Positions 29,664 through 32,753 of a stretch of 64,000 nt of DNA are shown here, in pieces. A model generated the notes under the pieces. The model was given only the letters and a program-made list of their open reading frames with translations, had not been told where the DNA came from and did no database searches. Both the position numbers and the translations under genes were made by a program. How positions within the stretch are numbered: position 1 is the first letter of the stretch; every line of letters begins with the position of its first letter. Source of the DNA: Escherichia coli. Its GTDB lineage: Bacteria > Pseudomonadota > Gammaproteobacteria > Enterobacterales > Enterobacteriaceae. The DNA is taken from assembly GCF_003334405.1 (NCBI RefSeq), contig NZ_QOWM01000001.1; one strand, 5' to 3'.

Positions 29664-29982
29664 AGTAGTCTCCTGAGGTTTTATTAGAATCATTATGTTT
29701 GAGCGTAGCGTTGGTAACGCTACCAGGCGCGTGAATGTTACCCCATTTTATGTATGGACATGTAGTGAAAACTACAACCTTGTCGTTCGCTTTGGCATCA
29801 TTTTCATTATAAAGACGGAATTTTGCATCAGCTTCTCATCAAGAAAAACAACTAAAAAATCAATCACAATACTTGTGCATTTCTTTAAACAGTTTTTAAA
29901 AACTGACTCCGGGTATGGAGCTATGGGTATTTTCTGTACCCAATGCTTTTAACAGCAATTAATTTCATAGGATGAAAGCTCA

Positions 29983-32574
29983 ATGCATCAATCTGGTTCT
30001 GTTTCTCTTTGTCGTTCCGCAATATCTGTTCTGGTGGCTACAGCGTTATATTCACCCATAGCATTGGCATCAACTGTTGAGTATGGTGAGACAGTTGATG
30101 GTGTTGTCCTGGAAAAAGATATCCAGCTGGTTTATGGGACCGCCAATAATACGAAAATCAATCCTGGCGGAGAACAGCATATAAAAGAATTTGGTGTAAG
30201 TAATAATACTGAAATTAACGGAGGGTATCAGTACATTGAAATGAATGGCGCCGCAGAATACTCAGTATTAAATGACGGTTATCAAATTGTTCAAATGGGT
30301 GGCGCGGCAAACCAGACTACGCTCAATAATGGTGTGCTACAGGTTTATGGCGCAGCGAATGATACCACGATTAAAGGCGGGCGCTTAATCGTTGAAAAAG
30401 ATGGGGGGGCCGTCTTTGTCGCTATCGAAAAGGGAGGACTACTGGAGGTTAAAGAGGGGGGATTTGCATTTGCGGTAGATCAGAAAGCAGGCGGTGCTAT
30501 TAAAACAACCACGCGGGCCATGGAGGTATTCGGAACAAACCGTCTCGGTCAGTTCGATATCAAGAATGGTATTGCTAATAATATGTTGTTGGAAAACGGC
30601 GGAAGTTTGCGAGTTGAAGAAAATGACTTCGCTTATAATACCACTGTAGATAGTGGCGGCTTACTGGAGGTTATGGATGGCGGGACTGTAACTGGCGTTG
30701 ATAAAAAAGCAGGCGGAAAATTAATTGTCTCAACGAATGCGCTGGAAGTGAGTGGTCCAAACAGTAAAGGCCAATTTAGTATAAAAGATGGTGTGTCAAA
30801 AAATTATGAACTGGATGATGGTTCCGGGCTCATTGTTATGGAGGACACGCAGGCCATTGATACTATCCTTGATAAGCATGCCACTATGCAATCGCTGGGA
30901 AAGGATACTGGTACGAAAGTGCAGGCAAATGCGGTATATGATCTCGGTCGATCATATCAGAATGGAAGTATCACGTATTCCTCAAAAGCCATCTCTGAAA
31001 ATATGGTTATCAACAATGGCCGCGCTAACGTCTGGGCTGGCACAATGGTTAACGTTTCAGTCAGAGGGAATGATGGCATTCTTGAGGTCATGAAGCCGCA
31101 AATAAATTATGCACCCGCAATGTTGGTGGGTAAGGTAGTGGTTTCTGAGGGCGCTTCTTTTAGAACGCATGGTGCCGTGGATACCAGCAAAGCGGACGTT
31201 TCGCTCGAAAATAGCGTATGGACCATCATTGCCGATATCACTACGACGAACCAAAACACCCTCCTCAACTTAGCCAACCTTGCGATGTCTGACGCAAATG
31301 TGATTATGATGGATGAGCCAGTGACTCGTTCATCAGTGACGGCAAGTGCGGAAAATTTCATTACGTTGACCACCAATACCCTGTCGGGAAACGGCAATTT
31401 TTATATGCGTACCGATATGGCTAATCATCAGAGCGATCAGCTCAACGTCACCGGTCAGGCAACAGGTGATTTCAAAATATTCGTGACGGACACCGGTGCC
31501 AGCCCGGCAGCAGGAGATAGCCTTACACTGGTAACAACGGGCGGCGGTGATGCTGCATTTACGTTGGGCAATGCCGGAGGCGTTGTTGATATCGGTACGT
31601 ATGAATATACCTTGCTGGATAATGGCAACCATAGCTGGAGTCTGGCAGAGAATCGCGCGCAAATTACCCCTTCAACCACTGATGTGCTGAATATGGCGGC
31701 CGCACAACCGCTGGTATTTGATGCAGAACTGGACACCGTGCGTGAGCGTCTTGGTAGCGTAAAAGGCGTTAGTTACGATACGGCGATGTGGAGTTCGGCA
31801 ATTAACACCCGCAACAACGTGACCACTGATGCGGGAGCTGGTTTTGAGCAAACATTGACGGGCCTGACGCTCGGTATCGATAGCCGTTTCTCCCGTGAAG
31901 AAAGCAGTACAATTCGCGGCTTGATCTTTGGTTACTCTCATTCTGATATTGGTTTTGATCGCGGCGGCAAAGGTAATATCGATAGCTATACCCTGGGGGC
32001 TTATGCCGGTTGGGAGCATCAGAACGGTGCCTATGTTGATGGGGTGGTGAAAGTTGACCGTTTTGCCAACACCATCCATGGCAAGATGAGTAATGGGGCA
32101 ACAGCGTTTGGCGATTACAATAGTAACGGCGCGGGTGCTCATGTTGAGAGCGGGTTCCGTTGGGTTGACGGATTGTGGAGTGTTAGACCCTATCTGGCCT
32201 TTACCGGCTTTACCACAGATGGTCAGGACTACACGTTATCAAACGGCATGCGCGCGGATGTGGGAAATACCCGGATATTACGCGCTGAAGCGGGAACGGC
32301 GGTAAGCTATCACATGGACCTGCAAAACGGTACGACGCTGGAACCCTGGCTGAAAGCGGCCGTGCGTCAGGAATACGCCGATTCTAACCAGGTGAAAGTT
32401 AATGACGATGGCAAATTTAATAATGATGTGGCTGGAACCAGTGGCGTTTATCAGGCTGGTATAAGGTCATCGTTTACCCCGACGTTAAGCGGTCATTTGT
32501 CAGTCAGCTATGGCAATGGCGCAGGGGTAGAATCGCCGTGGAATACTCAGGCGGGTGTGGTCTGGACGTTCTGA
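29983..32574 (+). CDS. yejO: Autotransporter (type Va) YejO, apparently intact: signal peptide, beta-helical passenger, C-terminal beta-barrel
   Basis: ORF 863 aa; N-terminal signal-like MHQSGSVSLCRSAISVLVATALYSPIALAS; repetitive G/N/T-rich passenger; C-terminal barrel ending ...AGVVWTF (aromatic terminal residue typical of autotransporters). AT-rich relative to neighbours. Confidence 0.88.
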   Translation: MHQSGSVSLCRSAISVLVATALYSPIALASTVEYGETVDGVVLEKDIQLVYGTANNTKINPGGEQHIKEFGVSNNTEINGGYQYIEMNGAAEYSVLNDGYQIVQMGGAANQTTLNNGVLQVYGAANDTTIKGGRLIVEKDGGAVFVAIEKGGLLEVKEGGFAFAVDQKAGGAIKTTTRAMEVFGTNRLGQFDIKNGIANNMLLENGGSLRVEENDFAYNTTVDSGGLLEVMDGGTVTGVDKKAGGKLIVSTNALEVSGPNSKGQFSIKDGVSKNYELDDGSGLIVMEDTQAIDTILDKHATMQSLGKDTGTKVQANAVYDLGRSYQNGSITYSSKAISENMVINNGRANVWAGTMVNVSVRGNDGILEVMKPQINYAPAMLVGKVVVSEGASFRTHGAVDTSKADVSLENSVWTIIADITTTNQNTLLNLANLAMSDANVIMMDEPVTRSSVTASAENFITLTTNTLSGNGNFYMRTDMANHQSDQLNVTGQATGDFKIFVTDTGASPAAGDSLTLVTTGGGDAAFTLGNAGGVVDIGTYEYTLLDNGNHSWSLAENRAQITPSTTDVLNMAAAQPLVFDAELDTVRERLGSVKGVSYDTAMWSSAINTRNNVTTDAGAGFEQTLTGLTLGIDSRFSREESSTIRGLIFGYSHSDIGFDRGGKGNIDSYTLGAYAGWEHQNGAYVDGVVKVDRFANTIHGKMSNGATAFGDYNSNGAGAHVESGFRWVDGLWSVRPYLAFTGFTTDGQDYTLSNGMRADVGNTRILRAEAGTAVSYHMDLQNGTTLEPWLKAAVRQEYADSNQVKVNDDGKFNNDVAGTSGVYQAGIRSSFTPTLSGHLSVSYGNGAGVESPWNTQAGVVWTF

Positions 32575-32631
32575 TAACAGAAAATAAACAGGCTGTGATG
32601 TGTCACGGTCTGTTTATCGAATTAATTGCAG

Positions 32632-32668
32632 ATATAAAAAAACCAACCGTAAGGGTTGGTTTTTTCTT
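32632..32668. terminator. Bidirectional intrinsic terminator shared by yejO (+) and proL (-)
   Basis: A-run, 8-bp stem AACCAACC-GTAAG-GGTTGGTT, then T-run. Confidence 0.7.
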
Positions 32669-32676
32669 GGGATTTT

Positions 32677-32753
32677 TGGTCGGCACGAGAGGATTTGAAC
32701 CTCCGACCCCCGACACCCCATGACGGTGCGCTACCAGGCTGCGCTACGTGCCG
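32677..32753 (-). tRNA. proL: tRNA-Pro (anticodon GGG)
   Basis: Reverse complement reads CGGCACGTAGCGCAGCCTGGTAGCGCACCGTCATGGGGTGTCGGGGGTCGGAGGTTCAAATCCTCTCGTGCCGACCA: cloverleaf-compatible, GGTTCAAATCC T-arm, 3' CCA, anticodon loop U-GGG. Confidence 0.93.

Follow-up and report, generated by a model that had tools for sequence, protein, structure and literature searches.

An uninterrupted yejO autotransporter gene beside proL in Escherichia coli and its relation to the IS5-interrupted allele of K-12

Among described autotransporters, the best match in sequence and fold for the passenger of YejO is Antigen 43 (Flu/Cah; PDB 4kh3, 7koh, 7ko9), a self-associating protein of E. coli, and AIDA repeats (PF16168) are also common to YejO and the glycosylated adhesin autotransporters AIDA-I and TibA. 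The gene itself is known from E. coli K-12 MG1655 as the 'adhesin-like autotransporter YejO' (b2190), where it is annotated as a two-piece pseudogene, join(2286390..2288914, 2290114..2290180), a status described before (PMC11005336, PMC11677980). A further point of comparison is provided by the tRNA-linked islands and P4-like satellites found at proL in genomes such as those of E. coli 042 and E. albertii, and by the gtrIC prophage remnant at this site in S. flexneri 1c; proL is a live integration site (PMC4924310). The literature searched yielded no dedicated functional study of YejO. Here we analyse the locus in a 64,000-nt stretch of an E. coli genome (hereafter the window; contig NZ_QOWM01000001.1) and we consider it very probable that it holds an ordinary, uninterrupted yejO, that is, an Escherichia-specific chromosomal gene for a type Va autotransporter, probably acquired at the proL slot.

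In the window, yejO is an unbroken ORF of 863 codons at 29983..32574 (+ strand, stop codon included), which starts with ATG and shows no internal stop; we infer that a stop-free run of this length would arise by chance with a probability of (61/64)^863, or ~1e-18. That the gene encodes a complete autotransporter of type Va (AIDA-I type) is supported by the ORF, Pfam and NCBIfam profiles, PDB sequence matches and public copies, and in identical genomes PGAP calls the same coordinates 'autotransporter YejO'. On one side lies the divergent narP (29016..29663, - strand), encoding a nitrate/nitrite response regulator of 215 aa; on the other side are proL, the gene for tRNA-Pro(GGG) (32677..32753, - strand), with its 3' end pointing at yejO, 102 bp away from the stop codon of that gene, and yejM (lapC/pbgA; 32828..34588, - strand), the linkage of which to proL is kept in the sampled Enterobacteriaceae species (75 of 80 loci). 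The narP–yejO spacer has a GC content of 0.364. An 85-aa ORF in this spacer (29695-29952) was rejected as a gene and is taken as spurious because it is annotated in none of the records consulted and lies in DNA of 36% GC.

The K-12 allele differs from this one by a single event. MG1655 carries a copy of IS5, IS5K (insH8; 2288919..2290113, 1195 bp), inside yejO after nucleotide 67 from the ATG, in codon 23 and thus in the signal-peptide region, at a site equivalent to 30049/30050 of the window. The 4-bp target that IS5K duplicated in K-12, TTAT, is present once in the window (30046..30049), and the sequence is continuous across 30046-30050, so that neither the 1195-bp element nor the duplication of the K-12-type yejO::IS5K allele is present. 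When IS5K and one copy of TTAT are removed, MG1655 aligns to window positions 28363-33464 with two narP SNPs, at 29569 and 29649, as the sole differences over the 5.1-kb stretch; the yejO ORF and the spacer are therefore nucleotide-identical, with the same position and flanks. Since the two yejO copies differ only by the IS5 and the 4-bp duplication, the window shows the pre-insertion state. The original prediction of a complete 863-aa yejO thus holds, with no internal stop found, and so does its view of the window as the uninterrupted allele. It was also right that the narP–yejO spacer is free of insertion sequences, although the length of 320 bp it gave is corrected to 319 bp (29664..29982), as narP ends at 29663. 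Its statement that MG1655 carries an IS5 and a disrupted yejO was correct, whereas the placement of the element in the narP–yejO junction was not; an uninterrupted K-12 spacer was to have spoken against an IS5 there, and the MG1655 spacer does match that of the window at every base and is equally uninterrupted, yet the IS5 exists.

By sequence and structural model, YejO belongs to the classical (type Va) autotransporters and is AIDA/Ag43-like, with a predicted signal peptide, a β-helix passenger, a pertactin-type domain and a β-barrel. Read directly from the sequence, the N-terminus, MHQSGSVSLCRSAISVLVATALYSPIALA followed by ST, carries a single basic residue, R11, ahead of a hydrophobic stretch (A13-L28), with A-L-A at positions -3 to -1, which suggests a Sec signal peptide of aa 1-29 (29983..30069, + strand) cleaved between ALA and ST; the AlphaFold model places a helix at residues 11-22, with low confidence over 1-27. 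Within the passenger, an AIDA-type repeat region at aa 52-315 (30136..30927, + strand) is indicated by Pfam (PF16168), by TIGR04415 and by the AlphaFold2 model, in which residues 30-440 are all-β with pLDDT >90 as a β-helix whose closest fold is the Ag43 passenger. A pertactin-type domain (aa 431-555; 31273..31647, + strand; PF03212, E 3.2e-45) forms the C-terminal end of the passenger, in the position of an autochaperone, and pertactin 1dab aligns to aa 368-558 in the PDB sequence search. The autotransporter β-barrel translocator (aa 602-863; 31786..32571, + strand) is recognised by PF03797 at aa 602-841 (E 8.8e-45) and by TIGR01414 (369 bits vs a cutoff of 16, E 2e-110), with PDB sequence matches to the BrkA barrel 3qq2 over residues 582-863 and to Vag8 7akv; the protein ends in GVVWTF, with the C-terminal aromatic residue of a β-signal. 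The AlphaFold2 run, based on an 11-sequence alignment, was good for the passenger and not usable for residues 505-863 (pLDDT ~22), so that the 12-strand topology of the barrel is taken from sequence profiles only. The barrel and pertactin regions show almost no variation among homologues. By analogy with the family, the predicted signal peptide would direct YejO into the periplasm, the β-barrel at its C-terminus (aa ~602-863, last residue Phe) would enter the outer membrane, and the passenger (aa 30-555), a predicted right-handed β-helix of AIDA/Ag43-type repeats with a pertactin-type cap, would then be displayed on the cell surface, most likely as a putative adhesin or self-associating protein.

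Judged by its sequence, YejO resembles the Ag43/AIDA-I/TibA group without being an orthologue of Ag43 or AIDA-I. Like Ag43, it combines a β-helix of AIDA-type repeats with a following autotransporter barrel, and the two passengers match with a phmmer E of 1e-36 at ~25% identity; in a Foldseek search with the YejO passenger, Ag43 passengers came out best (E ~1e-20), and the TibA and pertactin passengers were also among the top matches. With the Ag43 equivalog model NF033177, YejO reaches only 131 bits, far below the cutoff of 1200, and is therefore not an Ag43 orthologue; it is also shorter (863 aa vs 948 positions in the model). We know of no phase-variable control of YejO with which to extend the comparison with Ag43. 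The TibA passenger 4q1q matches YejO in sequence (E 4.5e-28) and the heptosylation-target repeat model TIGR04415 is exceeded (65 bits vs a cutoff of 30), the AIDA-I model NF033176 giving 74 bits vs a cutoff of 1200. No aah/tibC-like heptosyltransferase gene lies beside yejO, whose neighbours are narP and proL. NCBIfam contains no YejO equivalog, and only the generic barrel domain model scored above its cutoff there.

The spacer must hold the divergent promoters of narP and yejO. A consensus scan of 29600-32800 found no consensus sigma-70 promoter in it, and overall returned 3 sites, fewer than in shuffled sequences (5.7±2.7). An AGGA Shine-Dalgarno-like motif and downstream terminator hairpins are present at yejO; the consensus scan missed both hairpins, which were revealed by folding, a 109-nt stretch downstream of yejO folding at -37.6 kcal/mol (z = -5.7). 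The first, with a 15-bp stem just past the yejO stop codon (32584..32617, + strand), lies within the Escherichia-specific segment described below and is likely a terminator element of yejO. The second (32637..32665), an A/T-flanked hairpin able to act as a bidirectional terminator, is conserved in Citrobacter and so probably serves proL. In K-12 the transcript of yejO, there an interrupted copy, is among the least detected (PMC10392735), and expression of the gene in the laboratory is probably low.

The intact allele is commonplace and already known, and there is nothing new in its presence here. The locus has a match in each of the 5426 complete E. coli genomes, 4285 of which cover 80% or more of it in a single place; when these 5426 are sampled at even steps, about half keep the ORF. 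At least 1000 public contigs carry the identical protein, and the 90%-identity cluster named 'autotransporter YejO' contains 16,859 sequences. Among the collinear genomes sampled, eight of ten have the intact 863-aa ORF, and two have ATG>ATT together with a stop after residue 788. Altogether, at least six independent kinds of inactivation occur in a 39-genome sample. Besides start loss with a nonsense codon, which belongs to an ETEC/B1-like lineage, there are insertions of IS4, IS1 and, as in K-12, IS5, deletions of 1.0-1.15 kb plus 0.63 kb and an in-frame deletion of 222 bp; nested deletions are seen in B2/ST131-like strains. The insertions, the start-loss and nonsense allele and the nested deletions are the knock-outs cited for conflicting selection, a reading considered below. 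Since many lineages inactivated yejO independently, the gene is dispensable.

Frequent loss may not be neutral. In the gut, intact yejO could be actively expressed and promote adhesion or aggregation, and be lost so often through selection against a surface antigen, a reading that we regard as possible, if somewhat unlikely. Strains from phylogroups far apart, among them O157:H7, E. coli 042 and ATCC 8739, have kept the full-length ORF, and 73 of 141 healthy people have antibodies to recombinant YejO (PMC11242715); such antibodies could however cross-react with many related autotransporters. YejO also diverges much faster than its neighbours (75-82% vs 96-99.7% amino-acid identity), a frequent trait of surface antigens, but relaxed constraint predicts fast divergence as well. 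The lack of a promoter in the consensus scan of the spacer and the scarcity of the K-12 transcript, even if the gene is interrupted in that strain, argue against expression.

The origin of yejO is best approached through the proL slot, where the genera differ. In two Citrobacter loci (L010 and L012) proL lies ~207 bp from narP and yejO is missing. Compared with them, Escherichia has a segment of ~2.9 kb (29701..32623) that spans yejO together with its upstream region and the first of the two downstream hairpins; its borders are approximate, with a weak 43-nt match at 29731-29773 on the left and a right border that varies from 32618 to 32634 by species. None of 74 non-Escherichia loci has a YejO match within 10 kb of proL (tblastn, E 1e-10). 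Other species carry different cargo in the proL–narP slot, in one case bounded by a proL-derived repeat. By contrast, yejO is at the same place in E. albertii (L021) and in an Escherichia-like contig (L087), the two loci from which the within-genus distribution is read, as the cross-species scan returned no representative genome of E. coli, E. fergusonii or E. marmotae. The slot is in use in other genomes: P4-like elements insert into the gap that separates proL from yejO, and at the one in E. coli 042 the last ~23 nt of proL (32677-32699) are duplicated; integrases are encoded by the proL elements of E. albertii and Citrobacter, and Citrobacter sp. R56 has a true proL-derived repeat of 97 nt. 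The yejO segment shares with such islands its position just past the 3' end of proL and its absence from relatives with conserved flanks. It differs from them in that (i) there is no integrase or mobility gene in 29664-32676, where yejO is the sole long ORF and the other listed ORFs lie inside yejO or the spacer, (ii) there is no proL-derived att direct repeat in 29000-33000, where only chance matches of 8-11 nt were found, and (iii) its position is fixed across Escherichia.

In base composition, yejO has a GC content of 0.482 and a GC3 of 0.465, vs 0.524±0.032 and 0.573±0.055 for the 47 ORFs of the window, which puts its GC3 ~2 SD below the mean, and its codon usage ranks fifth of 47 in deviation (z = -1.6). 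The AT-rich parts are confined to the passenger (0.461) and the flanking non-coding DNA, the barrel half being at an ordinary E. coli GC (0.519). An AT-richness relative to the flanks, as originally predicted, is thus real but modest, and the adjacency to the 3' end of proL was correctly seen; the old horizontal acquisition beside proL that was drawn from them gains support from the cross-species synteny, but integrase and att repeat are missing and the skew is modest. For these last reasons acquisition is still an inference, although a plausible one. Alternatively, yejO may be ancestral to the Escherichia/Citrobacter/Salmonella group and have been lost from the other genera, which would account for a segment without mobility gene or repeat, for the ordinary GC of the barrel half and for the fixed position within Escherichia. 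We consider this unlikely: the empty slot in two Citrobacter genomes, the unrelated cargo in others and the lack of any YejO match near proL outside Escherichia speak against it, as do the AT-rich passenger and flanks and the fact that the slot is a proven integration site. An ancestor of Escherichia probably gained yejO at this variable slot, any integrase or att scars having since been lost.

It is also conceivable, but distinctly unlikely in our judgement, that yejO is under conflicting selection, being kept as a fast-evolving gut adhesin visible to host immunity and yet repeatedly knocked out where the antigen or aggregation is costly. Still more doubtful is the idea that the gene is functionally dead everywhere, silenced and decaying, with an ORF that is open here by sampling chance as no lesion has yet been acquired: the many kinds of inactivation and the fact that K-12 and the whole of ST131 manage without yejO (PMC5654935) fit it, but the 863-codon ORF is intact at 97-99% nucleotide identity across phylogroups, E. 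albertii and a 75%-identical lineage have it intact as well, and the barrel and pertactin regions hardly vary.

At the yejO locus it is thus the K-12 reference that is the exception, and when annotation is transferred from MG1655 to comparable strains, yejO should not be labelled a pseudogene. The importance of the finding beyond such bookkeeping is slight and nothing in it is unexpected, but the locus could serve the study of selection on surface adhesins; if yejO is indeed both kept and repeatedly knocked out by selection, the intact allele of the window would not be cryptic but would serve as a functional colonisation factor. The locus is also a tidy example of a tRNA-adjacent variable slot in which the cargo differs between genera, and it exemplifies how an autotransporter gene is inactivated repeatedly and independently within one species.

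yejO is a real and intact feature of the window. The six-frame list gives a single long ORF at 29983..32574 (+), opening with an ATG and encoding the complete 863-aa protein of the original prediction; the allele is open and structurally complete. It is flanked by narP (29016..29663 (-), 215 aa in the public annotation of identical genomes; six-frame ORF 29016..29693 (-)) and by the tRNA-Pro(GGG) gene proL (32677..32753 (-), confirmed by Rfam), whose 3' end it adjoins as proposed, 102 bp from its stop codon. The names narP, yejO, tRNA-Pro and yejM follow public annotation of genomes identical here. 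The narP–yejO spacer (29664-29982) contains, by direct reading, no insertion sequence, but measures 319 bp, one base off the predicted 320 bp. An 85-aa ORF inside this spacer (29695-29952 (+), DNA 36% GC) is unannotated in all records fetched and is probably spurious.

The IS-free spacer had been thought to set this allele apart from MG1655, on the premise that MG1655 carries IS5 at the narP–yejO junction. MG1655 does carry an IS5 here, but not at the junction. In MG1655 (NC_000913.3), yejO (b2190) is a two-piece pseudogene, join(2286390..2288914, 2290114..2290180), split by IS5K (2288919..2290113, with insH8), and narP starts at 2290500. Since the first yejO fragment is only 67 nt, the IS5 lies inside the ORF, at codon 23 in the signal-peptide region. 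Published work likewise describes the K-12 pseudogene (PMC11005336, PMC11677980) and gives the orientation of the IS5 within yejO as direct (PMC11677980). The MG1655 spacer (2290181-2290499) is also 319 bp and equally uninterrupted, and so distinguishes nothing. Alignment to a K-12 genome, where the IS is 1195 bp with termini GGAAGGTGCGAA..., places the insertion point after window position 30049, with duplication of TTAT (30046-30049), which looks like a non-canonical target. Once IS5K and one duplication copy are removed, 5102 bp of MG1655 match window 28363-33464 with two narP substitutions (29569 and 29649) as sole differences. K-12 yejO differs by a textbook insertion of IS5 within the gene, outside the spacer.

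The window yejO represents the common wild-type form of a gene already known and named, and is nothing novel. All 5426 complete E. coli genomes (5426/5426) match the locus, 4285 with 80% or more of 29400-32900 covered at a single site; the exact 863-aa protein occurs on at least 1000 contigs, its 90%-identity cluster, named 'autotransporter YejO', holds 16,859 sequences, and many unrelated isolates share a 25-kb stretch around yejO at 100% identity. When 39 chromosomes were sampled in even steps from the 5426 genomes, the locus was collinear and full-length in 21, full-length with an element inserted at proL in 3, shortened by an in-frame 222-bp deletion (789 aa) in 2, IS-bearing in 5 (IS5 in three K-12 derivatives, IS4 in one, IS1 in one) and affected by large deletions in 8. 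In the deletion alleles, window ~30385-31538 or ~30455-31458 is missing along with 31916-32544; the type strain ATCC 11775 carries a deletion allele, and the reported lack of yejO in ST131 (PMC5654935) agrees with them. Eight of the ten collinear genomes fetched hold an intact 863-aa ORF; the other two, ATCC 43896 and MB07011, combine a start change (ATG>ATT) with a stop after residue 788. Because these strains are unrelated by source, their doubly lesioned yejO (584-3175 in each locus) suggests a lineage-wide pseudogene. In strain 190 (yejO at 2084-4453), the 222-bp deletion falls in the AIDA repeats (window ~30495-30654) and its 789-aa product is annotated as intact; overlapping alignment ends indicate that it arose by recombination between repeats. 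From these survey counts, roughly half of E. coli retain the ORF, and the rest have lost it in six or more different ways.

The gene was also predicted to be AT-rich. This holds for the whole gene (GC 0.482 and GC3 0.465, vs 0.524±0.032 and 0.573±0.055 in 47 long ORFs of the window), but the deficit is confined to the passenger (0.461) and the non-coding DNA on either side (0.364 and 0.343), the barrel (0.519) being spared; codon usage is moderately deviant (z = -1.6, rank 5/47). Among yejM loci from 80 Enterobacteriaceae species, a proL match directly follows yejM in 75; in the other five, proL is displaced in one and was not found in two, and two sequences end just past yejM. In two Citrobacter-type loci, narP lies ~207 bp beyond proL. 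Because these loci align with the window across yejM, proL and its terminator as far as ~32624-32634, and again from ~29700, just upstream of narP, the intervening ~2.9 kb is Escherichia-specific; it comprises yejO with its upstream region and the first of two downstream hairpins. Other genomes carry unrelated cargo in the proL–narP slot, such as a CigR-family gene or a TonB haem receptor. In Citrobacter sp. R56 (slot 11912-15411), a 3.2-kb islet delimited by a 97-nt repeat of the 3' portion of proL (15158-15253) contains a degenerate, weakly tyrosine-recombinase-like integrase ORF and a TolA-C-terminal-like ORF. This islet, sitting where E. coli has yejO, is a classic example of a decayed tRNA island. 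An Escherichia-like contig (L087) has a YejO 75% identical to the window protein at the same position. The empty and differently filled slots favour the predicted old horizontal acquisition, but neither an integrase nor an att repeat was found in the yejO segment, which would also fit a loss of yejO in the sister genera, and such a loss may have occurred instead. We nonetheless consider it likely, on gene order and homology, that an ancestor of Escherichia acquired yejO in the proL slot.

Mobile elements do use proL. In E. albertii, yejO lies beyond a ~8-kb P4-like element (11913-20250) with an integrase adjoining proL, DUF927/primase, SSB and a ProQ/FinO-like gene. In E. coli 042, the P4-like element between proL and yejO (9296-15288) shares this gene set apart from the integrase and additionally carries PerC, Icd-like and Ash genes. 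As the homology between 042 and the window breaks off at 32699, within proL, the att core of this element consists of roughly 23 nt from the 3' end of proL. A prophage remnant occupies the same interval in S. flexneri 1c (PMC4924310). Plasmid pZ1323HEC0010-3, a phage-plasmid of 44.6 kb with tail fibre genes and ParA, contains 58 nt (3001-3058) 92% identical to 32669-32728 (the 3' part of proL), a candidate attP or tRNA fragment.

YejO belongs to the classical type Va autotransporters and resembles AIDA and Ag43. In Pfam, its AIDA repeats score strongly at aa 184-245 and 257-315 and more weakly as far back as aa 51; they are followed by a Pertactin domain at 431-555 (E 3e-45) and an Autotransporter β-domain at 602-841 (E 9e-45); the N-terminus has Sec signal peptide features ending ALA|ST and the C-terminus is ...VVWTF. 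In NCBIfam, the generic barrel model is well over its cutoff and the heptosylation-target repeat model TIGR04415 is above it; no glycosyltransferase gene is adjacent to yejO. An AlphaFold2 model built from an 11-sequence alignment is all-β with pLDDT above 90 for residues 30-440 and fails for 505-863. Its best Foldseek matches are Ag43 passengers (E ~1e-20, ~25% identity), then TibA and pertactin, and the sequence-similar solved structures are Ag43 passengers, TibA, Vag8, the BrkA barrel and pertactin. YejO scores far under the cutoffs of the NCBIfam Ag43, AIDA-I and BafA models. By analogy with its family, YejO would be exported by Sec, insert its barrel and then display a β-helical passenger, possibly with adhesin or self-association activity.

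The yejO ATG is preceded by an AGGA motif at a distance of 10 nt. A consensus scan of the narP–yejO spacer found no sigma-70 promoter; the literature calls 'PyejO' putative and uncharacterised (PMC11677980). Beyond the stop codon come two strong hairpins, one at 32584-32617 and another at 32637-32665; the latter is A/T-flanked and predicted to be able to terminate proL as well. In a K-12 compendium of 3376 datasets, where yejO is an interrupted gene, it ranks ~4501st by datasets with detectable expression, in the bottom ten of the list (PMC10392735). Of 141 healthy people, 73 reportedly had antibodies to recombinant YejO (PMC11242715), a hint of expression in vivo, though cross-reaction could also account for it.

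Elsewhere, the window holds five tandem naRNA4 (RF02564) copies with a period of ~113 nt (15209-15743 (-), between mqo-like and eco-like ORFs) and two more at 3249-3439 (+), just past an rcsC-like ORF. MicF (7100-7193 (-), upstream of an ompC-like ORF) and the L25 ribosomal-protein leader (36469-36494 (-), upstream of rplY) are above their Rfam gathering scores. Between yejK and rplY, the L087 contig (from Logan) has three extra genes (14415-17139), for a multihaem cytochrome, an FAD-binding flavoprotein and a cytochrome c3-like protein, with no counterpart in window 36024 to 36469.

YejO is 82% (E. albertii, C-terminal 500 aa) and 75% (L087) identical to the window protein, vs 96-99.7% for the flanking YejM, NarP, CcmF, CcmH and YejK in both; it thus evolves much faster than its neighbours. 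The sole mildly interesting aspect of the locus is the repeated, independent inactivation of the gene for a fast-evolving surface protein.
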